29,511 nt of DNA from a virus (lineage: Duplodnaviria; Caudoviricetes). Location of the stretch: the IMG/VR virus record IMGVR_UViG_3300038393_002521, positions 1 to 29,511 of that record, one strand, 5' to 3'. A program made the position numbers and the translations under genes. Position 1 is the first letter of the stretch; each line of letters begins with the position of its first letter. Positions 5,355-29,511 of this stretch are shown here, in pieces. The notes under the pieces are model-generated. The model was given only the letters and a program-made list of their open reading frames with translations, had not been told where the DNA came from and did not search any database.

Positions 5355-6995
5355 TCAGGCTGCCACGCTCTCGCGAGCAGCCGCGGCGCTTGGAGCATTG
5401 GCAGCGACAAGTGCTTCGGCGAGCGGCGGGCAGACGCTGTTGCCGCACTTTGCAACTTGCGCCGTCTTCGTGATCGGTCGGCCATCCACGCCCCGGTCGA
5501 TGATATAGTCGGCAGGGAATCCCTGCGCGTTGAACAGCTCGCGTGGTGTGAGCATCCGCATGCCGATGTCGACGATGACGTATTCCTCGCCATCGATCGT
5601 CACCGTCACGACGCTAAAGCGATCCTTCGTCGTGACCGTCCCCAGCGACCGCTCCGGATCGTGCCCCTCGCTTTCATTGCCGTAATATTTGAGCAGGAAG
5701 GCTCGAACCTCGGCCATGTGCGTGCCTTGCGCGCTCACTGTCGCCAGAGGCTCGTCGACCTGCTGCCCGTGCTGACAAGTCCCGCGGAGCTTTACCAGGT
5801 TCGACGTACAGACAGCCTGAAGCGGCCCTTTCTGGACAATGGTTGAGACCGGCTCTTCGGGCGAATGACCTTCGTTGAGCTTGCGTCCTTCCCTGGTCTC
5901 GCTGAACTGTGCCAAGTGAGCAGCAACGACCGCGTGCCGCGGGGCCCCTGCCATGACGGTATGCAGCGGCTCATCGGGCGAATAGCCCTTCCCGTTGTCG
6001 GCGAACTTCTGCATGAAGGCCTGCACAACTGCAGATTTGCCGCCGCCTCCGGATGTCGTCGTTGGAAGTGGCGCGTCAACCGGCGACCCTTCGCTCTTGC
6101 CAAATTGACGCTCGATCGTGGCGGCAACGAGCGCTAACTCACCGCCTTTCGCGGTCGTGATCGTCCGTAGGGGCTCATCGCCCGGATGATAGCGATCGCC
6201 AGCCCATTTCGTGTTGCAAACCGGCACGATAAAGGGATGCGGATTCTTCAGTACGAACTTGACGATGCCGTGAGCAATGCGCCGCAGCGTCTTTTCGGCG
6301 AGCGGCTTCTTGCGCTCGAAGATCGATGGGCAGGGAATCGACCAATCGATGATTTCCGCGGCGGTGCGCCAAGGCAGGCGCTGGCCGCTCAGAACCTCAG
6401 CGCTATCAGGCTTGCCATGCGTCGGCGCCGGCCACACGATCGGCTGGCCATCGCATCTGGCGATCATGAAAAACCGTTTGCGGATGGTCGGCGCGCCGTA
6501 GTCGCAGGCCCGCAGCTCGCGGAACTGCAACTTGTAACCCTGCCGACGAAGCGCCTTGCACCACTTCGTAAAGGTTTCGCCGACGCGATCCCGGATGATT
6601 TGGCCGTGATCGTCGAGCGGTCCCCAGGTCCGAAACTCCTCGACGTTCTCGAGGAAGATGCAGGTCGGCTTCACCCGCTGCGCCCACAGCACCACCACCC
6701 ATGCCAGATCGCGGATAGACTTCTCGCGCGGTTTGCCGCCCTTCGCCTTGCTGAAATGCTTGCAGTCCGGGCTGAACCAGGCGAGCTCGACCGGCTGGCC
6801 ATCCGTGACCTCGCAAGGATCGACTTGCCAGATGTTGTTGCGGACGTGCTTAGTGGCCGGATGGTTGGCCTCGTGCATCCGCAGGGCTTCTGCATCGTGA
6901 TTGATGGCAATATCGACGGCGCGGCCGAGCGCAGCTTCGATGCCGGTCGAAGCTCCGCCGCCGCCGGCGAAATTGTCGACGAGAAGGCCTGTCAT
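5355..6995 (-). CDS. DNA (cytosine-5) methyltransferase
   Basis: Motif I FAGGGG, catalytic SPDCKHFS, ENV, YGAPTIRKR, motif IX RMLTPRELFNAQGFP and motif X GNSV. Confidence 0.95.
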   Translation of the reverse strand: MTGLLVDNFAGGGGASTGIEAALGRAVDIAINHDAEALRMHEANHPATKHVRNNIWQVDPCEVTDGQPVELAWFSPDCKHFSKAKGGKPREKSIRDLAWVVVLWAQRVKPTCIFLENVEEFRTWGPLDDHGQIIRDRVGETFTKWCKALRRQGYKLQFRELRACDYGAPTIRKRFFMIARCDGQPIVWPAPTHGKPDSAEVLSGQRLPWRTAAEIIDWSIPCPSIFERKKPLAEKTLRRIAHGIVKFVLKNPHPFIVPVCNTKWAGDRYHPGDEPLRTITTAKGGELALVAATIERQFGKSEGSPVDAPLPTTTSGGGGKSAVVQAFMQKFADNGKGYSPDEPLHTVMAGAPRHAVVAAHLAQFSETREGRKLNEGHSPEEPVSTIVQKGPLQAVCTSNLVKLRGTCQHGQQVDEPLATVSAQGTHMAEVRAFLLKYYGNESEGHDPERSLGTVTTKDRFSVVTVTIDGEEYVIVDIGMRMLTPRELFNAQGFPADYIIDRGVDGRPITKTAQVAKCGNSVCPPLAEALVAANAPSAAAARESVAA

Positions 6996-7552: not shown

Positions 7553-7751
7553 TGACCGTCTGCCGTTTGACCCGTTTCGGGCGCTTGGCGCGATAGTCCA
7601 TCTCACGGATGATCTTCTCGAGCCTGAGGCTGTCGCGGTCGTCGAGGCGTTCCCGACGGCTCTTAGCGTCGAGCTCGTGGAATTCGCGCTCGAGGCGCCG
7701 CTGCGAGATGTGGCCGCCGGCCCGGCGAACGGTCACCTCGAGCTTTCCCAC
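7545..7751 (-). CDS. Small basic hypothetical protein
   Basis: 68-aa charged ORF overlapping the DUF1643 start. Its GTG start lies in an att arm repeat. Confidence 0.55.
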   Translation of the reverse strand: MGKLEVTVRRAGGHISQRRLEREFHELDAKSRRERLDDRDSLRLEKIIREMDYRAKRPKRVKRQTVNA

Positions 7752-7950
7752 ACGGGGGCTAAGCCATTGATATGCAATGGCACGAACGAAGCGGGAAAAT
7801 GGGGAATGGGCGCTGAAACTAAAGCGAAAAATCGGTCCACGGCGAAAACACGGGTTCGAGTCCCGTTGGGGTCACCAGTGGCGGAAAACCGCCGTTTTCT
7901 AGCCCTTCGCATTGCCGCTCTTTCCCACATTCGGGGTCGGTTTTCCCACA
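7744..7950. mobile_element. attP: 40-bp core (7838-7877, 3' half of a tRNA-Glu) flanked by TTTCCCACA arm repeats
   Basis: CAC-GGCGA-AAAC-ACGGG-TTCGAGT-CCCGT-TGGGGTC-A-CCA is a tRNA from the anticodon loop to CCA, with no 5' half. TTTCCCACA occurs at 7744, 7921 and 7942. The site is adjacent to the integrase 3' end. Confidence 0.85.
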
Positions 7951-9955: not shown

Positions 9956-10188
9956 TTCGATTGCTCCTTCTGACGACCGCGCACCTCGGCGGCCTGCTTG
10001 AACCAGTCTCGCTCGGCCTGCGTCGTCGACAATTGCCGCTTCAGCCGATTGTTCTCCTCGAGCGCGCCACGACGTAGAGCGCGCGTCGCCCAATGGGCTT
10101 GCTGCTCACGCCGAAGCGCGATCGCCAAGGACGCAGCGATGATCACCGAGGCTAGGGCGATCATCAAACAGGCGGCGACCTGGCTCAC
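9952..10188 (-). CDS. Membrane-anchored coiled-coil protein
   Basis: N-terminal TM followed by a heptad-like region. GTGA coupling to dnaN. Confidence 0.7.
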   Translation of the reverse strand: MSQVAACLMIALASVIIAASLAIALRREQQAHWATRALRRGALEENNRLKRQLSTTQAERDWFKQAAEVRGRQKEQSK

Positions 10189-11336
10189 ACGCGCATCGGC
10201 ATCAGAACGGCGAGGAAATCCTCGTCATTGTCGAACTTGAAGGTGATTGGCTGAGCTGGGTCCGCCCCGAAGCCAATCGTCACGCCCGTTTTCGGATGCG
10301 TGTCCAATATCTCGGTCGCGTATCTTGCGTTGAAACCAATCGACTGTGGAACGCGATCAGCGACCTTCCCTGCAAACGTCTGGCTAAATCTGAAACCTTC
10401 TGGGGACGAAAATCTAATCGTCGAGGCGCGCGGATCTAAAACGGCACCTTTTATGGACTCGCCGCCGAGCTTCCTGATTGTCTTCAGGGGTCCAGAGAGA
10501 TCGTCCGATTGCAGAGAAAGTTCGCCTACCGAAGCGTCCGGCAAAATGCGCGTGTAATCAGGATAGGTGCCATCGATGAATTTCGTCTCGAGGAGCCATT
10601 TGCCAACGGAAAAGCAGCCGTGGAGTTTAGCAATTTCGATGAGTACGTCCGATCTGGACGAGTCGCCTGCCAGGATCGCCAATAGGCACCTAATGCCTCG
10701 CGTTCTGAAGATGACCTGCGGCATCTCTCCGTCCACCGTGAGCAGTGGGGAATGAGCCAAGTGAAGCCGATGACCGTCGGTCGCCGCCAGTTCAAGGCGA
10801 CCGTCGACCATCTTCATCGAAATGCCGTTCAAATAGTAACGGGTTTCCTCATACGAGATCGCAGGCTGACATAATTTCAGCGCTCTCATCAGAGCATCCG
10901 CTGGTGCCTCCAGGATCACATCTGGGTCTGGTCGGCGGAATGCTGGGAAATCGTCTGTCGGGAGCGAGAATATCTCGAATTCGCCAGCTTTTCCGCGAAT
11001 GAATAACTTGTCGTCAGTGGCAAAAAAGCCTAGCTCTTCTTTGCCGAACGCATTGACTGCAGCCTGCAGCGCACGATGTTCCACGAGCGAAGAAAAAGCA
11101 GGCGACCCGCAAGGCAGCACGCATGTAAGTCTGTGATCGAGATCGGTCCCGACAACCGTCAGCGTTTTTCCATTCGCCGTGAGCAACACGTTTTCCAGAG
11201 CAGGTATTGAGGCCCTTCCCTCGACCACACCCCCAAAAATAGCCAGCACTTGGCCGAGTCGCTCGCCCGTTAGGGCTGGCGACTCGGCGGCTGGGGAGGG
11301 GGTCTCTTCTATGACGGCTGCGGCGGTCTTCGGCAT
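10185..11336 (-). CDS. dnaN: DNA polymerase III beta sliding clamp
   Basis: IPALENVLL, GTDLD, DDFP, AISYEETRYYLNGI, ATDGHRL, IDGTYPDY, IGFNARY and C-terminal VLMPMRV. 383 aa. Confidence 0.93.
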   Translation of the reverse strand: MPKTAAAVIEETPSPAAESPALTGERLGQVLAIFGGVVEGRASIPALENVLLTANGKTLTVVGTDLDHRLTCVLPCGSPAFSSLVEHRALQAAVNAFGKEELGFFATDDKLFIRGKAGEFEIFSLPTDDFPAFRRPDPDVILEAPADALMRALKLCQPAISYEETRYYLNGISMKMVDGRLELAATDGHRLHLAHSPLLTVDGEMPQVIFRTRGIRCLLAILAGDSSRSDVLIEIAKLHGCFSVGKWLLETKFIDGTYPDYTRILPDASVGELSLQSDDLSGPLKTIRKLGGESIKGAVLDPRASTIRFSSPEGFRFSQTFAGKVADRVPQSIGFNARYATEILDTHPKTGVTIGFGADPAQPITFKFDNDEDFLAVLMPMRV

Positions 11337-12420: not shown

Positions 12421-12632
12421 TGCCCGCCGGCACGCACTTCGCGATGCGCCTCGTCATCATGTTCGCGGCTGGCTTCGTCGGCTCCGCGATTGTCGTTGAG
12501 ACGGCGAAACGGGCCCGGGAAAATTATTTCATTACAGGCGTTTCATTCCGGGATTCCCGATATGGGACAGTCACTTTTTTATCCCGCCGACTCGGACGAA
12601 CGCGACTCGAGTCGCTGGCCGGGCTTCAGTGA
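12420..12632 (+). CDS. Hypothetical protein with one TM segment
   Basis: TGATG and GTGA coupling at its ends, but it overlaps a probable regulatory AT-rich patch. Confidence 0.45.
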   Translation: MPAGTHFAMRLVIMFAAGFVGSAIVVETAKRARENYFITGVSFRDSRYGTVTFLSRRLGRTRLESLAGLQ

Positions 12633-14200
12633 GCGTCGAGATACTTATTGGCGACGCGCTCGAGCAGCTGCGCACCCTCCCCGATGCCTCGATCGACATG
12701 TGCGTCACCTCGCCGCCCTATTGGGGGCTGCGGGATTACGGCGTCGAGGGCCAGCTCGGGCTCGAGCCCACGCTAGGCGAGCACATCGCCGCCCTGGTCG
12801 AGATATTCGAGGAGGTTCGGCGCGTTCTCAAGCCCACTGGCTCGTTCTGGCTCAATTACGGCGACTGCTACGCGACTTCCCCCAACGGACGCTCCGCAGC
12901 CGACACCAAGGACCTCGGCCAGGACGACCGCACCTTCCGTGACAAGCCCTTCTCAACCGTCGGCCCGATCTACGGCGCCGAGGGCGGCTCTGATCGCCCG
13001 GGCAAGCCGGCGAATGGCACGAAACGACGCGGCGGTGGCAACAATCCGTCCGGGCCCATCGCCCGCCTCGAGATCGACGATTCTCCGCGCAACCGCAGCA
13101 GGCGCGGCCGGAGCGGCAACCTCGGCAACGGTGGACTCAATGGCGTCGGCATCCCCGGGGCCCGCGTCGTCGGCGATGGCGGGCGATACGAGCCCGAGTA
13201 CGCCAAGACAGTCCGGGGCAAATGGAACAACGCCGACAGTCGCGTCACTAGGGTCGAACACAGCGGCAGGATCGTCGCCGGCGGTTACCTGAAGCCCAAA
13301 GACCTGTGCATGATCCCCAACCGCCTGGCGATCGCGCTCCAGGATGCCGGCTGGTGGGTGAGGAGCGAGATCGTCTGGGGCAAGCCCAACGCGATGCCCG
13401 ATTCCTCCGGCGTCTATCGCCCGTCGACCTCCCACGAGAAGATATTCCTGCTCACCCGCGAGGGAGGGGACGTCTATCGCGCTCGCGACACGGGCGAGAT
13501 CAGCTTCAGCCCGGACCTCAAGGAACGCTGCCCGCTCATCACCGATCCGAGCCGCGATGCGCCGCGATGGATCAACATCGAGACCTATTATGACGCGGTG
13601 GCGGTTCGCATGCCGCCCGCCGAGGCATCATTGCAGCGCTGGTCGCAGGATATTGAGAATCAAGCGGGCAGCACCCGCGCCAATGCCGGCGGAAAGACCA
13701 ACGGCACGATGAAGGCTGTTGGCGGTGCTAAGAAGCCGCCGAAAAAGCGCGGTGCTGCTCGGCCACACAGCGGCTTCGACCTTCGCTGGGATCACATGAC
13801 CGTCGCGGAGCAGCGCGGCAATGGTCGCCTGCTGCGCAATTACGAGCCCGATCTGTCGGCGATCGTCCCGCCCGAGGTGTGGGAGATCGCGACCGCTTCA
13901 TATTCAGGCGCCCATTTCGCAACCTTCCCGCCTGCGCTCGTCGCGCCGTGCATCATGGCCGGCTGCCCCAAGGGCGGCACGGTGCTGGATCCGTTCGGCG
14001 GGGCGGGGACGACCGCGCTCGTCGCCGAGGCGCTCGGCCGCGACTCGATCCTGATCGAGCTCAATCCCGAATCCGTCGAGCTCGCCAATCTGCGCATCCG
14101 CTCGCGCAATGCCCGGGCTCATCCGCCGTGCACCAAGACCGCGAAGCCTGGCCTCCTCGCCCTGCTCGATCATCCGCCGGTCGACGAGGTCGCGCCATGA
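12629..14200 (+). CDS. DNA methyltransferase (N4-C/N6-A, beta class) with large insertions
   Basis: VTSPPYWGLRDYG, LKPTGSFWLNYGD, LKPKDL, IVWGKPN, HFATFP and VLDPFGGAGTT. Confidence 0.93.
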   Translation: MSVEILIGDALEQLRTLPDASIDMCVTSPPYWGLRDYGVEGQLGLEPTLGEHIAALVEIFEEVRRVLKPTGSFWLNYGDCYATSPNGRSAADTKDLGQDDRTFRDKPFSTVGPIYGAEGGSDRPGKPANGTKRRGGGNNPSGPIARLEIDDSPRNRSRRGRSGNLGNGGLNGVGIPGARVVGDGGRYEPEYAKTVRGKWNNADSRVTRVEHSGRIVAGGYLKPKDLCMIPNRLAIALQDAGWWVRSEIVWGKPNAMPDSSGVYRPSTSHEKIFLLTREGGDVYRARDTGEISFSPDLKERCPLITDPSRDAPRWINIETYYDAVAVRMPPAEASLQRWSQDIENQAGSTRANAGGKTNGTMKAVGGAKKPPKKRGAARPHSGFDLRWDHMTVAEQRGNGRLLRNYEPDLSAIVPPEVWEIATASYSGAHFATFPPALVAPCIMAGCPKGGTVLDPFGGAGTTALVAEALGRDSILIELNPESVELANLRIRSRNARAHPPCTKTAKPGLLALLDHPPVDEVAP

Positions 14201-14511
14201 CCTACCACGGCAGTCTCGACTATTGCGAGTGGAACGGAGCGCGCATCACGATGCTGTGCGAGCGGCTCGGCGAGGGAAGCAGCTTCGCCGTAGTCGCAAG
14301 CGCGCTCGGCGTCACGCGCGGCGTCATCTCCGGCAAGTTCGATCGACTGAAGAGCGAATTTGCCGGACGCATGAGCAAGGCCGGGTTCTGCGAGCGCCTC
14401 TCTGAAGGCGCCGAGCTTGAGGACATCGCTGAGGAAGCCGGCGTCAGCTTCGGCGCCGCGGAAGCCATGCTCGCCCAGGTCCGACGGGATCTCGGGCCGC
14501 AGGCGAGGTGA
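14197..14511 (+). CDS. GcrA N-terminal-domain-like protein
   Basis: [40 protein letters not shown] resembles GcrA W-ER-L-L-G-SA-IA-LG-TRNAVIGK-HRL. It is followed by a short HTH-like segment. Confidence 0.65.
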
Positions 14512-14521
14512 GGAGGACGAC

Positions 14522-15019
14522 ATGGTGAACGGTGTTTTTGCAGCCGACCAGCTCAAGCTGTTCGTCGAGCGCATCGAGCGGCTCGAGGAAGAGAAAAAGA
14601 ACATCGGCGAGGATATCCGCGACGTCTTCGCCGAGGCGAAGGCGAATGGCTTCGATCCCAAGATCATGCGCAAGTGCATCACGCTGAGGAAACAGCCGTC
14701 GCAGCAGCGCGACGAAGAGGAAGCACTGCTCGATACCTACAAGCGCGCTCTTGGCCTGAAGTCGTTCGACGACACCCCACTCGGCAAGGCCGCTGCGGAA
14801 GAGGAAGAGACCCCGCCATCTGAAGAGCAGACCGAGGCGCCGCCGCAGGCCAAGCCTGGCAAGCCAGCTCGCCCGATCAGCCACTCGATGTCGACGGTTC
14901 CGCTCGGGGAGGAGCCCAAGCCCAAGCGGGGACGACCGAGGAAGGTGCGCGATCCCTCGGACGGCACGCTCGTCACGATTCCGGCAAACGAGACCCAAGC
15001 CCAGGCTGAGGTTGCCTGA
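14522..15019 (+). CDS. gapR: GapR (DUF2312) nucleoid protein with C-terminal extension and AT-hook
   Basis: [45 protein letters not shown]...[10 protein letters not shown], followed by [19 protein letters not shown]. Confidence 0.9.
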
Positions 15020-16130: not shown

Positions 16131-16546
16131 GAGAGCACAATCGCTCCGGCCCCGCGCTGCAGTTGCTCGCCGAGATCGACAAATGGTGCGCACGCACCGC
16201 GACGCCCGAGAATGTCATCGGCGCCTACCTGTTCCGCCACGGCGGTTTCGTCGGCCTGCTGCGGCTTCGCCATACCGTCAGCGAGGAGAAAGAAGAGGCT
16301 GTTCGCCAGTTCATGACCAAGTATCCCGACGGCTTCCATGGCGCACTCCCCAAGTGCAACGTGCGCATGCCCAAGAAGCTTGCCACGACAGCTAAGTTCA
16401 TCGCGGAGCGCGGGCAGTTGCCGGAGAAAGAACGGGTTCGTCTCAGCGAGGCCGAGATCGCCGCCCGCCGGGTCAATCGCGAAGCATGCACCTATTGCGG
16501 CGTCCGCGCCGACATCGGCTGTCGTCACCGGCGGAGCTTGGCATGA
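16127..16546 (+). CDS. Hypothetical HTH-like protein with C-terminal CxxC-CxH
   Basis: ATGA coupling. LLAEIDKWCARTAT... N-terminus and REACTYCGVRADIGCRH C-terminus. Confidence 0.75.
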   Translation: MREHNRSGPALQLLAEIDKWCARTATPENVIGAYLFRHGGFVGLLRLRHTVSEEKEEAVRQFMTKYPDGFHGALPKCNVRMPKKLATTAKFIAERGQLPEKERVRLSEAEIAARRVNREACTYCGVRADIGCRHRRSLA

Positions 16547-17091
16547 ACGACCGCACCGAGCGCATCAGCCGCGACGCATATCGCAAGCTGGTCGGTTTGC
16601 CGCCTGTAGGTCAGCAGACGGAAGTCATCGAATACAAAGGCTCGTGCTGGAAGCTTGCTCCCGTCCCCGGCGTCCGCGGCGAGGACATTACCCGCACACG
16701 CGCGACCTTCGTTCCCGGACCTCAGCACAAGGGCAAGCAGCATCACATGCTTGGGCGGCTGGGCGTCGGGATCATGAACAAGACCGAGGCCCGCTACGAG
16801 CGCGAGGTGCTCATCCCCGCCAAGGAGCGCGGTGAGTACCTCTGGTACGCGTTCGAGGGGGTCAAGCTGCGCCTCGCGAACCGCACCTTCCTCACCGTCG
16901 ATTTCTTCGCCCTCAGGCCCGACCAGGTCTTCGAGGCGATCGACGTCAAGGGCGCCAGAGCCATCGTCGAGGAGGACGCCAAGGTGAAGATGAAGGTCGC
17001 CGCGGCGATGTTCCCGTTTCAATTCAGGATGGTCTTTCCCCGTCCCCGCGCTCTGGGCGGCGGCTGGTTCACCGAGGAGGTAAAAGGATGA
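16543..17091 (+). CDS. DUF1064-like PD-(D/E)xK endonuclease
   Basis: MNKTEARY, FEGVKLRLA, VDF...IDVKG, and DAKVKMKVAA-FPF. Confidence 0.8.
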   Translation: MNDRTERISRDAYRKLVGLPPVGQQTEVIEYKGSCWKLAPVPGVRGEDITRTRATFVPGPQHKGKQHHMLGRLGVGIMNKTEARYEREVLIPAKERGEYLWYAFEGVKLRLANRTFLTVDFFALRPDQVFEAIDVKGARAIVEEDAKVKMKVAAAMFPFQFRMVFPRPRALGGGWFTEEVKG

Positions 17092-18074
17092 ACGCTTTGG
17101 GCAACAAGCGCCTCGTTATCTGTGGCTGCAACCGCGTCGCCGTCGCTGCGGCGACGACGCTCGCAACACATGATCTACCCCCCTTCAGCACGCTCTTCAT
17201 CCAAGGGCCAAGCGGGAGCGGCAAGACCCATATCCTGCGCGCCATCGAAGCGATGCATCGGGCAATTCAGCCCCAGGCGACCCGCATGCTCCTCAACGCC
17301 GGCGAGCTGATGCGCTGGCCGAACAAGGTCAACGAGGACGAGCTCCATGGCATCGACCTCCTTTTGATCGATGATCTCGACGTCGTCGCCAAGTCCGGCA
17401 TCACGCAGGAAAACCTCGTCCACATCATCGATACGATCGAGCGCCTCGCCAAGGGCCGCGTCGCGATGACGAGCTCGCTCACCACGCGCGACCTCAGCGG
17501 CATCAGCCCGCGCCTGATGTCGCGCCTCTATGCGGCGGCCGGCGTCGATATCGGACGGCCGGACGAGGCGATGCGCGCCGACATGCTCCGCGCCGAGCTC
17601 GAGCAATGGCAGGAGGTCCGCATCAGCGGTTCGCTGATTGCCTCGCTCGCCGAGCGTCTTCCGAGCGACGGCCACATCATCGCCGGCGCGGCCAAACGCA
17701 TCGCGCTGCATGTCCAAGCGACCGGCCTCGAGCCTGATGAATCCGTCGTGCTGGCGATGCTCCACAACAGCATCAACCTCACGCCCAGAATCGCCGTCTC
17801 CCTGATCCAGACGCACACTGCCAAGCATTTTCACATCCCGGCGCGCGAGATGACCTCAGATCGCCGGGCCCGCGAGGTCGCACGGCCGCGCCAGGTCTCG
17901 ATGTATCTATGCAAGCTCCTGACACCCAAGTCGCTGCCCGACATCGGCAATCTGCATGGCGGGCGCGATCATACGACCGTCATCCATGCGGTGAAGCAGA
18001 TCGAGAAGCTCCGCGCTGTCGACGGCGACCTCGATAGCTCCATCCGCGTTATCGAGCGTGAGCTCACGCATTGA
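17088..18074 (+). CDS. dnaA: DnaA-like protein, domains III (AAA+) and IV only
   Basis: Walker A GPSGSGKTH, Walker B LLLIDD, RLMSRL, and domain IV RPRQVSMYL...SLPDIG...GGRDHTTVIHA. It starts right at domain III. Confidence 0.9.
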   Translation: MNALGNKRLVICGCNRVAVAAATTLATHDLPPFSTLFIQGPSGSGKTHILRAIEAMHRAIQPQATRMLLNAGELMRWPNKVNEDELHGIDLLLIDDLDVVAKSGITQENLVHIIDTIERLAKGRVAMTSSLTTRDLSGISPRLMSRLYAAAGVDIGRPDEAMRADMLRAELEQWQEVRISGSLIASLAERLPSDGHIIAGAAKRIALHVQATGLEPDESVVLAMLHNSINLTPRIAVSLIQTHTAKHFHIPAREMTSDRRAREVARPRQVSMYLCKLLTPKSLPDIGNLHGGRDHTTVIHAVKQIEKLRAVDGDLDSSIRVIERELTH

Positions 18075-18400
18075 GTTGGAGGTGGCCTCGACTGCGTGAA
18101 TCGCTTCGTCGTCGCGATGGCGAGCGCTGCCGGCGTTGTAAGGAGCCTGAGCGGCGCTGCTGGCGGTTCATGGCCTTGCGGATCAGCGACGACTGGCCGG
18201 ACTTCAGCAGATACTCCGAGATTCACCTCTGCTCGAATTTGGAGATCGACCATGTCATTGCGCGGCGGCTGGGGGGCAAGACGCGCCTGAGCAATCTCCA
18301 GCTGCTCTGCATCCCATGCCACAAGCAAAAGACGTCCTACGAGCGACTCCTTTGGCCGCAGCGCGCGCATAAGCGGCTTCCTACTAGGTTGTTCGCATGA
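18071..18400 (+). CDS. HNH endonuclease
   Basis: RRDGERCRRC, LEIDHVIA-GG-NLQLLCIPCHKQKT. TTG start. Confidence 0.88.
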   Translation: MSWRWPRLRESLRRRDGERCRRCKEPERRCWRFMALRISDDWPDFSRYSEIHLCSNLEIDHVIARRLGGKTRLSNLQLLCIPCHKQKTSYERLLWPQRAHKRLPTRLFA

Positions 18401-19494
18401 GCCGCGAAGTGGAATCATGGGCTCGGCAGCAGAAGACTGGAAATCCAGTCCGCAAAGCGGTGCTCGTCGCACTCGCTAACCAAGCCGATAGCCTCGGCCA
18501 GAATTGCTTCCCGTCGATCAACTTCCTTGCCGAAGAGGTGGAAGTCGATCCGCGCACCATTCAGCGACGCCTGAAAGAGCTTAAAGCAATGCAGCTGATC
18601 GATTGGGGAGTGCGGCTACGGGCCGACGGATCTCAATCATCCAACTGCTACACCTTCATTGGGTATGTCCCACCGAGGCTTTCCCATCGTCCCGCTCCTA
18701 CGCCACTCAAAGGGGGTGGCAAAATGCCGGGGGGTGCCAAATTGCCATCCCTGGGTGACGCCAGCGCCACCGGGCCCCACGACACTGTTGTCACCCCAAG
18801 GACTCCTGACGAATTACCTTTCCCCCCCACTGCTGAAGATAAATCTCCAGCAGTGTCGCCCCCCAAGGGTGGCGAACCGCCGGTTGATGATCAGCAGGAG
18901 GTCGAAGAGCCGAGGGCAAGGCGCGGGACACGGCTTCCCGAGGACTGGAGCCCGCCGCCGATCGACACGCTGCCGCAGACCGTGCAGGCCGTCGTCGCCC
19001 AATGGCCGAAGGGCGCCTACGAGTTCGTCGCTGCGGGCTTCGCTGGCTACTGGACGGCGGAGAACGGCCGGCGGGCGAGCAAGCGCAACTGGCGAGCTGC
19101 CTGGGTGAAGTGGCTGACGGCCGAGGGTGTCCGGGTGCTGGCGATGGCACGGAACGGCATCAAGTTCTTCTCCGGCACCGTGAAGCTTGCTGACGACGAA
19201 GCGCTCGCCGACCTCGAACGGCTGCGCAGCTCCGAAGACGAATGCGTCGCCAAATTGCGGGATCATCTGCGCAAGGATCTCGGCGCCCAGACCTATGACG
19301 GCTGGCTGAGGCCGACCGTAATCGGCATCCACCCCGGGCACCTCACCGACTGGTACGTCAACGTTATCTGCCCGAGCGCTTTCATGGCTGATTGGGTCGA
19401 GCGCAACTTCAAGCCGACCATCACCGCCATGGCCTGCCGGATCCTCGAGACCGACAGCCTCACCATCCAGTTCGAGATTGTGAGCGACCGCTGA
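18397..19494 (+). CDS. Phage replication initiator: N-terminal HTH plus C-terminal DnaA domain I
   Basis: KAVLVALAN-AD...CFPSINFLAEEVEVDPRTIQRRLKEL...SNCY, then RGTRLPEDWSP, then C-terminal LRKDLGAQTYDGWLRP...PSAFMADWVERNF. Confidence 0.88.
   Translation: MSREVESWARQQKTGNPVRKAVLVALANQADSLGQNCFPSINFLAEEVEVDPRTIQRRLKELKAMQLIDWGVRLRADGSQSSNCYTFIGYVPPRLSHRPAPTPLKGGGKMPGGAKLPSLGDASATGPHDTVVTPRTPDELPFPPTAEDKSPAVSPPKGGEPPVDDQQEVEEPRARRGTRLPEDWSPPPIDTLPQTVQAVVAQWPKGAYEFVAAGFAGYWTAENGRRASKRNWRAAWVKWLTAEGVRVLAMARNGIKFFSGTVKLADDEALADLERLRSSEDECVAKLRDHLRKDLGAQTYDGWLRPTVIGIHPGHLTDWYVNVICPSAFMADWVERNFKPTITAMACRILETDSLTIQFEIVSDR
18712..18797. repeat. Iteron-like repeats (putative phage origin) inside the rep gene
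   Basis: GGGGGTGGCAAAATGCC (18712), GGGGGTGCCAAATTGCC (18730), GGGTGACGCCAGCGCC (18753) and an inverted GGGGTGACAACAGTGTC (18781-18797). Confidence 0.65.
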
Positions 19495-19811
19495 TGCCGG
19501 TGCGCGTTCAACTCAGCCGCAAGAAGGGCTGGCGGATGCCGCCCAACACCGTGAAGGTCGATCGCACGACCCGCTGGGGCAATTGGCATCGGGCGGGCGG
19601 ACCTGTCTGGCGCAACAAGGGATTCGGCAAGGTGCGGGACGCCGCAGAGGCTGTCGAACTGTTCAGGCGGCTCCAGGCACCCGTCATGAGCGATATCGCG
19701 CGGCTGCGCGGCAAGAACCTAGCCTGTTGGTGCGCGCCAGGTGAGCCGTGTCACGCCGATGTGCTGTTGGAATTGGCTAACCGGCCACTGGCGATCGCCG
19801 ATGCCGAGTAG
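19494..19811 (+). CDS. DUF4326 domain protein
   Basis: RVQLSRKKGWRMP, VDRTTRWGN and LRGKNLACWC...CHADVLLELAN. Confidence 0.9.
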   Translation: MPVRVQLSRKKGWRMPPNTVKVDRTTRWGNWHRAGGPVWRNKGFGKVRDAAEAVELFRRLQAPVMSDIARLRGKNLACWCAPGEPCHADVLLELANRPLAIADAE

Positions 19812-19992
19812 CCTGGCGCGCTTCGCCCACCTCTGGGGAGAAGAGCATGACGAGCATGCCCGCAAGCTCGCTCGCGAGGCCTTCCACAATCACGGGATCA
19901 TCCTGCTCAGGCCCGGCTGGCTACCCGGATGGGCTGATCGAAAGCAGGCCGAGCAGTTGGCCGAGAAGGTCCACGGGAAGCGGAGGAGCTGA
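19801..19992 (+). CDS. Hypothetical protein
   Basis: 63-aa ORF from ATG 19801, tiling the operon. Confidence 0.7.
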   Translation: MPSSLARFAHLWGEEHDEHARKLAREAFHNHGIILLRPGWLPGWADRKQAEQLAEKVHGKRRS

Positions 19993-19993
19993 G

Positions 19994-20827
19994 TTGTCGG
20001 GGGAGGGAAAGAAACCGCGGATCAAGCGCCCGCCAGGCTGGTATGGGAAGCAGGCGCGCGAGGAACGCCGACGCCAGCGCCACGAGCGCCGGCAGGAGCG
20101 TCTCGCCATGCTCGAGGAGCGGCGGCAGCGCGTCGAGAAGGCGCGGCGGCAATACATCGAGCATCAGGAGAAGGTCGCTCGCCGCATCGCGACCGCCGCC
20201 GAGGAGAAGGTCAGGAAAGCGCCCCGGCTCGTGAACGGGATCGCCGCCCTCGAGGGCGAGAGCGACGCGATGTATCAGGCGCGGGTCGAATCCCTCCGCC
20301 AGATCGTCGGCCGCTCGCGCATGCTCAAGCGCTGGGATCACAAGAACGAGGGCACGGCCGAGACCCACGAGAACGCCGCCCGCACCCGGCAGGGCGCGCT
20401 CGCTAGGATGTTCATGGCGGGCCACATCAATGCGGATCAGCTCGGCTGGGCATGCGAGATCGCGGCCGTCGCGGAATCGATCGAGGCGGACGTCGCCGTG
20501 CGCGCCCAGGCCTACGAGATGCGGGTCGACTACAGCGGCAGCGGCCGGAACAGCCTTGTCGAAGGCATCATGCGGGTGCGGCGCGAGGTCGCCTACGGCT
20601 GGTGGCGCGAGCGGATCCCCGAGCCGAGGCGAGCAGTGCTCGACATGCTGGTCGGCGAGCCGGTCTCCTATTCAATGATCGCCATCCAGTTTCGCATGGG
20701 AAAGGCCCGCGCCCGGCGCCTGCTGATCGATGCTCTCGACCTCTGGCCGGACGCGATGCGGCACGCCGAGCGCGAGGTCGACGACGCTAGCCTGGCGGCG
20801 GCGCATTCCGGAATCATGGGAGGATGA
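19994..20827 (+). CDS. Putative late-gene regulator (Q-position protein) with basic N-terminus and C-terminal HTH
   Basis: TTG start after GGAGGAG. C-terminal YSMIAIQFRMGKARARRLLIDALDLW is HTH-like. It sits after the replication genes, so the function is inferred from position. Confidence 0.6.
   Translation: MSGEGKKPRIKRPPGWYGKQAREERRRQRHERRQERLAMLEERRQRVEKARRQYIEHQEKVARRIATAAEEKVRKAPRLVNGIAALEGESDAMYQARVESLRQIVGRSRMLKRWDHKNEGTAETHENAARTRQGALARMFMAGHINADQLGWACEIAAVAESIEADVAVRAQAYEMRVDYSGSGRNSLVEGIMRVRREVAYGWWRERIPEPRRAVLDMLVGEPVSYSMIAIQFRMGKARARRLLIDALDLWPDAMRHAEREVDDASLAAAHSGIMGG

Positions 20828-27985: not shown

Positions 27986-27989
<4 letters not shown>
27726..27989 (+). CDS. Hypothetical Ala/Lys-rich protein
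   Basis: 87-aa ORF with an AAGGA RBS. Confidence 0.7.

Positions 27990-29511
<1,522 letters not shown>

Follow-up and report, generated by a model that had tools for sequence, protein, structure and literature searches.

Why should a temperate phage carry two pieces of the bacterial initiator DnaA, one comprising the AAA+ and DNA-binding domains (III and IV) as a separate gene and the other, domain I, attached to the C-terminus of its own replication initiator? The question is raised by a stretch of 29,511 nucleotides (IMG/VR record IMGVR_UViG_3300038393_002521; here, the window), which is part of the genome of a temperate phage infecting Sphingomonas-type bacteria and covers about 46% of it. 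The window encodes an integrase, cI-like and cro-like genes, a rightward early operon and a terminase, and the genomes in which the initiator finds matches are Sphingomonadales in 9 of 9 cases. One public contig, which may be the source of this DNA, spans positions 16400-20000 with zero differences from the window, and a misassembly was rejected. The genes at issue are:

16486..17091, forward strand: RusA-like resolvase gene, found immediately before the headless gene in 3 of 3 loci with context
17088..18074, forward strand: headless DnaA of 328 aa, with domain III at about residues 8-228 and domain IV at 234-326, without domains I-II
18071..18400, forward strand: HNH endonuclease gene, in a variable slot between headless DnaA and initiator
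18397..19494, forward strand: replication initiator of 365 aa, with a winged helix (1-92), a disordered iteron-encoding linker, a helical middle region (173-260) and domain I (279-362)

The initiator thus lies two genes after the headless DnaA with the HNH gene in between, as an earlier sequence-only reading of the window had described. In relatives the same slot holds a methyltransferase and other genes, and the HNH gene is outside the module. The four Pfam families which that reading had anticipated (DnaA_N, Bac_DnaA, Bac_DnaA_C and HTH_36) are all found above their cut-offs in the expected ORFs.

The ORF at 18397-19494 is a lambdoid (O-like) initiator ending in a DnaA domain I. Its winged helix is backed by HTH_36 (residues 19-67, 35.2 bits, cut-off 25), by PHROG 1032 and 391 and by the structure model. 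At the other end, DnaA_N (PF11638) matches residues 286-345 with 34.7 bits (cut-off 24.6), while Pfam gave no DciA match for this domain; its predicted fold is KH-like, and the best PDB match of the initiator model is domain I of B. subtilis DnaA (4TPS, E 0.002; chain B with TM 0.82 of the target and rmsd 1.7). The gene also contains its own iterons, so that this part of the sequence-only reading is borne out:

18715-18731, 18733-18749, 18754-18771 and 18778-18795, no strand assigned: four imperfect dyad iterons, read by eye together with relatives
18830..18853, no strand assigned: inverted repeat, read by eye, directly after the iterons, with a similar repeat there in several relatives
19231..19482, forward strand: DnaA domain I part of the initiator, with Phe329 corresponding to E. 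coli Phe46 and Val284 at the Trp6 position

The dyads follow the pattern GGTG(A/C/G)CA-n3-4-TGTCACC and span 18715-18795 within the initiator gene; a default repeat finder returned just one 17-nt pair among them. The relatives used for comparison were L083, L179, L180, L087 and L090; dyads of similar form occur in several relatives, and in others this part of the linker carries repeats of another kind, which is what an origin within the initiator gene would lead one to expect. The A+T content after the iterons is at most 0.47 in 30-nt windows versus about 0.37 overall. We regard 18715..18795 as the probable phage origin.

A profile search with the initiator against 1.84 billion representatives recovered 111 matches at E 1e-30 or better, and DnaA_N is matched in 45 of the 51 full-length aligned members. 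The fusion of initiator and domain I is a large sphingomonad prophage family, and no record among the GenBank phages covers 80% of the initiator. Going by database annotation the architecture recurs in other lineages, with ESM Atlas clusters in which DnaA_N is combined with HTH_36, DnaD_N, Phage_rep_O or DnaB_2 as leads. Of the 118 initiator ORFs in the fetched loci, 59 remained once redundancy was removed; domain I is present in 28 of these, among them that of the window, and absent from 31. L225 (genome G722) was left out of all analyses.

These two groups differ in what lies behind the initiator: a small helical loader-like gene is present at 25 of 30 loci without domain I versus 0 of 28 with it, counted over loci with at least 600 bp downstream (which excludes L119, a carrier of the gene with a short flank). 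Nineteen of these 25 genes were seeds of the profile and six were found fresh, and leave-one-out runs recovered 15 of the 19; one of the five loci devoid of the gene has a primase-helicase after the initiator. Screening for Walker A failed to tell initiators that have domain I from those without it, the difference being seen with the small non-ATPase gene alone. With the structure model of this gene, Foldseek placed SPP1 G39P first (E 1.2, TM 0.60) and lambda P third, and VIA likewise placed SPP1 G39P first (Z 6.1, where the tool advises caution below 8; rmsd 2.1 over 58 residues). One member is matched by the PHROG 'P-like helicase loader' (E 1.5e-14), and a sequence search of the PDB with the profile returned nothing significant. 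The gene is thus predicted to be G39P/lambda-P-like, a call made at modest scores from genomic context and the agreement of the searches; in the available part of PMC11087808, the VdhL loaders are likewise identified through a G39P-like fold at a similar Z.

The claim that neither a helicase nor a DnaC/P-type loader follows the initiator holds at all 28 fusion loci, that of the window included, and the complete genome of a relative (G002, 58,951 bp) gave no match to DnaB_C, IstB/DnaC, phrog_109 or the G39P-like profile. In the tree, all domain I fusions form one clade (SH-aLRT 99), and the mutual exclusion of loader-like gene and domain I therefore counts as one gain-and-loss event rather than 28. 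Within this clade L157 has neither domain I nor loader-like gene and shows an unrelated tail instead.

The fused domain retains the Phe46 position in 30 of 33 copies, three being without it, and has Trp at the Trp6 position in 0 of 33 versus 36 of 37 hosts. In E. coli DnaA, according to the available parts of PMC5742627 and PMC12818906, Phe46 binds DnaB and Trp6 makes the self-contact of domain I. DnaB and DciA are both encoded in 5 of 5 host genomes tested, and PMC9825169, in its available part, describes the DnaB side of the domain I contact as poorly conserved in DciA-type species. Prediction of a complex between domain I of a sphingomonad prophage and a pair of DnaB copies from the host of that prophage scored 0.27 against a mark of 0.32 and counts neither for nor against the contact. 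The earlier proposal that the initiator recruits the host helicase through domain I hence gains comparative support from the exclusion of the loader, the kept Phe46 and the lost Trp6, with the contact itself carried over from E. coli. Domain I might instead use its Phe46 patch to bind another host factor, e.g. a regulator or replication protein, in line with the binding of DiaA and YfdR by this patch in E. coli (available parts of PMC5742627 and PMC5448010), with a SirA complex as the best fold match and with the unrelated tail that replaces domain I in L157. This would not account for the disappearance of the loader-like gene at loci that have gained domain I, and we regard it as highly improbable.

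We consider it likely that the initiator recognises the iterons which its own gene contains, as the lambda-O layout suggests, and that the fused domain I, by analogy with the E. coli Phe46-DnaB contact, tethers host DnaB. Domain I would thereby have replaced in function the G39P/P-type loader encoded behind related initiators, and loading of the DnaB ring would probably proceed via host DciA.

The second piece is equally clear in its identity. Bac_DnaA matches the headless protein at residues 9-149 (58.3 bits, cut-off 23) and Bac_DnaA_C at 238-305 (91.7 bits, cut-off 31.5), DnaA_N is absent from the Pfam matches listed for it, and its alignment to B. subtilis DnaA starts at residue 121 of the latter; the description of this ORF as the AAA+ and DNA-binding domains of DnaA without domains I-II is accordingly sound. 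Its ATG follows a GAGGAGG-type site and overlaps the upstream stop (ATGA), and six relatives have nearly the same length (329-332 aa), so that a mis-called start was rejected and the truncation is real. It lacks domain I and scores 217.7 bits against TIGR00362 (DnaA), below the cut-off of 343.9, and its closest DnaA proteins are those of Sphingomicrobium, Sphingomonas and Sphingosinicella.

Seven headless proteins are known to us from this survey, six of them at 55-100% identity and one found beside a related initiator. A metagenome scan for further ones with a generic Walker B pattern gave 13 weak AAA+ matches at 23-40% identity; 401 Sphingomonadaceae genomes yielded no headless gene at E 1e-44, in a screen that scored seven candidates per genome and had no positive control; and the DnaA matches among GenBank phages were host-like or comprised domain IV only.

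Are the two pieces halves of one gene? In 3 of 3 cases with context the headless gene comes next to the RusA-like gene, on its downstream side, and a domain I initiator lies 0.3-1.6 kb further on behind differing intervening genes; a fourth pair, both members of which are on contigs of 8,683 in length, presumably shares one contig. Conversely, just 3 of the 28 fusion loci carry a headless DnaA: it is missing from 22 of the 25 with at least 2.8 kb upstream (three were excluded for short flanks). Whether built from domain I or from the middle domain, the trees (quick ones with few columns) place the carriers together in a single nested group, to which the non-carrier L178 is sister in the middle-domain tree. 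Genes with domain IV only precede the initiator at 9 of 24 related loci found via the initiator query alone, and at 16 of 31 when loci found via domain IV are counted too. A single fission, with which the trees are still compatible, would have to be followed by more than one loss. It is simpler to suppose that domains III-IV were captured later, into the slot that a domain IV-only gene often occupies, and headless DnaA and domain I fusion look like separate modules. The 'split, permuted DnaA' of the sequence-only reading, taken as one co-operating unit, finds no support, given the fusion loci devoid of the headless gene and the confinement of the carriers to one nested clade.

The same evidence weighs upon the possibility of a truly split initiator, in which the headless DnaA would assemble at and open the phage origin and domain I would load the helicase. 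The adjacency of the genes, the nearest affinity of both captured pieces to sphingomonad DnaA (weakly supported for domain I) and the unwinding of oriC in vitro by E. coli domains III-IV alone (PMC5448010) speak for it; the many fusions without a headless partner and the position of L178 speak against it, as do the residue and box patterns described below, and we hold it to be improbable.

The seven headless proteins were compared with 66 alphaproteobacterial DnaA sequences. E. coli numbers were given to the domain III positions by motif, with the B. subtilis alignment as a check. Domain IV is well conserved, with 25 of 29 host-invariant columns retained and 64-69% identity to host DnaA, versus 23 of 71 columns and 25-35% in domain III; the box-reading Arg399 and Asp433-His434-Thr435-Thr436 are kept in 7 of 7. 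Also retained in all seven are the Walker A Lys, both Walker B Asp and the two box VII arginine positions, Arg281 and the arginine finger Arg285 (Arg142 and Arg146 in the window). The sensors are altered throughout: the sensor I Asp, present in 66 of 66 hosts, is replaced by Ser or Thr in 7 of 7 (Ser130 in the window), and sensor II is changed at

17673..17675, forward strand: sensor II codon, here for His196; the headless proteins share this His (7 of 7), where host DnaA has Arg (66 of 66)

E. coli DnaA R334H is defective in hydrolysis. The position of the strand-binding Val211 (H motif) is gapped in 7 of 7 and the initiator-specific helix is about eight residues shorter, the span from Walker A to Walker B being 49 residues versus 57 (spans of 36, 73, 90 and 98, where the pattern fell on a different DD, were set aside). 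Arg227, Leu290 and the aromatic residue at His136 are gone from all seven, Lys is found at the Lys243 position in 0 of 7 (two have Arg), and the AID1 and AID2 positions are gone in most or all members.

We take the roles of these E. coli residues from the available part of a review (PMC5742627). There, sensor I serves high-affinity nucleotide binding, sensor II is needed for hydrolysis and RIDA and dispensable for the formation of initiation complexes, and AID1, AID2 and Lys243 are needed for domain III to make functional contacts. The headless DnaA is hence predicted to read DnaA boxes and to offer an arginine finger, lacking the helicase contact and the strand-binding helix and having a degraded ATP pocket. 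The deleted Val211 position stands against the opening of the phage origin by this protein, and the losses of AID1, AID2 and Lys243 suggest that its joining of host filaments may be weak.

The dispensability of sensor II for initiation complexes, together with an escape from domain I regulators that the missing domain I would afford, could also suit an activator, locked in the ATP state, that lengthens host filaments and drives the cell into S phase, to the advantage of a prophage or an infecting phage. With sensor I, the H motif, AID1 and AID2 lost as well, a filament competent for unwinding is unlikely, and we rate such an activator as very unlikely.

Somewhat less unlikely, although still not our choice, is that the headless DnaA chiefly regulates transcription or simply occupies boxes, as a longer form of the domain IV-only genes, and that its domain III serves just to help it self-oligomerise. 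The frequency of those genes upstream of related initiators agrees with this, as do the lost AID1 and AID2 positions and the divergence of domain III relative to domain IV. It sits poorly with the Walker motifs and the pair of box VII arginines, which are invariant across the seven proteins, and with a sensor II that is fixed as His rather than drifting, and also with the distribution of boxes.

In three carrier phages (110 kb, including one complete genome) box-like 9-mers number 5 versus 5.0 expected, and in 20 domain IV-only loci 20 versus 27, whereas 30 host dnaA loci have 29 versus 12.7 expected. The whole window has no site within one mismatch of TTATCCACA; a looser one-mismatch pattern gives 22 scattered sites versus 10.8 expected, none exact and none near the iterons, an excess which codon use may account for. 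As boxes are at chance level in the phages and enriched at host dnaA, a host target is likelier than the phage origin, and the absence of boxes near the iterons counts further against a split initiator; since the window is 46% of the phage genome, boxes could lie elsewhere in the phage. What the earlier reading suggested for this protein, occupation of host boxes or entry into host filaments with no helicase loaded, fits both the residue pattern and the box counts.

We lean towards the headless DnaA as an accessory of one phage clade, a disarmed DnaA that would read host-type boxes and antagonise host DnaA there. To judge from the E. coli mutants, it would bind neither the unwound strand nor the helicase and would hydrolyse ATP poorly; it may compete for host boxes, or insert into and terminate the DnaA assemblies formed on them. 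Host initiation would then drop and helicase would be freed for the phage. A more specific version, which we put forward tentatively and consider doubtful, is a DNA-guided one-way inactivator: domain IV would target the host boxes, and the intact finger would engage the ATP of the adjacent host DnaA and trigger hydrolysis in the manner of Hda, or cap the filament, nothing extending from the protein as its own ATP face would be dead. Were this so, one piece of DnaA would silence oriC and the other would take the helicase, with no loader gene needed. On balance, and with some reserve, we favour for the locus as a whole two separately useful pieces of sphingomonad DnaA, a helicase-tethering initiator and a host-antagonising headless DnaA.

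The sequence-only reading had further joined the module to neighbouring genes in an integrated takeover system:

10185..11336, reverse strand: phage beta-clamp (DnaN) gene, in the leftward operon and present in 3 of 3 headless loci
14417..15019, forward strand: GapR-like gene, frequent in related prophages whether or not they have the module

DnaN and GapR are genuine, and the GcrA-like gene matches its family with 15 bits, below the cut-off of 26.9, and in its N-terminal part only. The three genes are syntenic in the three carriers, for which shared operon ancestry suffices. A GapR gene accompanies 17 of the 28 fusion loci and also 7 of the 31 loci without domain I; DnaN is near 5 of 28 fusion loci within the fetched flanks, and its putative link to the module consists in co-presence at the three headless loci. 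These data lend no specific support to a takeover system of DnaN, GcrA and GapR. A self-encoded circuit of clamp plus Hda-like protein was likewise rejected, as a search with what we take to be the clamp-binding motif found it in 0 of 7 headless proteins.

The absent clamp motif and the presence of domain IV also set the headless protein apart from Hda/HdaA (TIGR03420), with which it shares a DnaA-derived AAA+ domain without domain I and a kept arginine finger (the invariant Arg146); DnaA is the nearer family, with 217.7 bits versus 55.7 for Hda (cut-off 194.8). The arginine finger of Hda acts on DnaA in trans. From chromosomal DnaA (TIGR00362; PDB 8BTG, 2E0G and 4TPS), nearest in Sphingosinicella, Sphingomicrobium and Sphingomonas, the phage pieces differ in that domain I is the C-terminus of another protein and that domain III is without sensor I, sensor II, H motif and AID1/2. 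The domain IV-only phage proteins (Bac_DnaA_C; PRK06030-like) have the same DNA-reading domain and the same place upstream of the initiator and lack the AAA+ domain; we found no functional study of them in the literature.

Like lambda O/P and SPP1 G38P/G39P (PHROG 1032 and 391; PDB 1NO1 and 9OA1), the fusion phages have a winged-helix initiator with iterons in its own gene, encoded in a rightward early operon behind cI/cro-like genes. The sister initiators retain the G39P/P-like gene as those modules do, whereas the fusion phages have, instead of a loader gene, a captured host helicase-binding domain. The DANL domain of DciA (PF05258) resembles DnaA domain I and binds DnaB (available part of PMC9825169), whereas the fused domain is DnaA-derived by its sequence; YfdR is a prophage protein that blocks Phe46 of DnaA (PMC5448010) and, unlike the present proteins, is no DnaA fragment. 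The literature covered, with few subscription papers or older replication-module reviews and no supplements, described neither a fusion of initiator and domain I nor a phage DnaA of the headless kind, and the available part of PMC9437464 has nothing on either.

If our interpretation is right, these phages possess a loader-free replication module in which a captured DnaA domain I stands in place of the P/G39P gene. With the fusion one could then ask, in a small system, how DnaB reaches an origin in DciA-type bacteria and whether domain I suffices, and as such fusions recur across lineages the strategy may be common and have gone unnoticed. The headless DnaA, with its finger kept and its sensors lost, would be a natural separation-of-function mutant and is a candidate for a new kind of phage inhibitor of host initiation. 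Together they would represent a new way for a phage to divert the replication machinery of its host.

Beside its integrase, the window carries a putative attachment region and, elsewhere, several further genes:
150-226, tRNA-Met (CAT) gene
5355-6995, DNA methyltransferase of the C5 type
7852-7877 (approximate), stretch resembling a tRNA 3' end, adjoining the integrase end
12629-14200, DNA methyltransferase of the N6/N4 type with long insertions
27986-29509, DUF1996 domain protein, truncated by the window end

The DUF1996 gene follows the terminase and Gp80-like genes, and genes for DUF5131 and DUF1643 proteins are also present. Three copies of TTTCCCACA occur at 7744, 7921 and 7942; together with the tRNA-like stretch, they suggest that 7744-7950 probably comprises the attP core and its arm sites.

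Beyond the seven-member headless DnaA family of the window, two other loci encode partial DnaA proteins:
L004:9022-10038, a second headless DnaA (338 aa)
L024:9365-10291, phage ORF in which DnaA is represented by domain IV and the domain III lid alone, preceded by an unrelated stretch

The L004 protein, encoded on an integrative element alongside an integrase, a ParB-like gene and another initiator, is the mirror image of the window's family: its two sensors are still present and its arginine finger has been replaced by Leu, whereas the window's family retains the finger and has lost both sensors. It apparently arose independently of that family.

Genes for domain IV alone are common in phages (viral loci L005-L081), often lying directly upstream of an initiator, and their DHTT motifs are intact. 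DnaA boxes are not enriched in the 20 such loci examined.

Several alphaproteobacterial phage initiators (L113, L115, L124, L136, L148 and others) are followed by a divergent G39P/P-like family, most of which is overlooked by Pfam and PHROGs. A further initiator belongs to the domain I clade:
L157:9689-10555, initiator that has an unrelated, helical C-terminus in place of domain I

The loader-like gene is absent at this locus, and the arrangement is a candidate for a third way of reaching the helicase.
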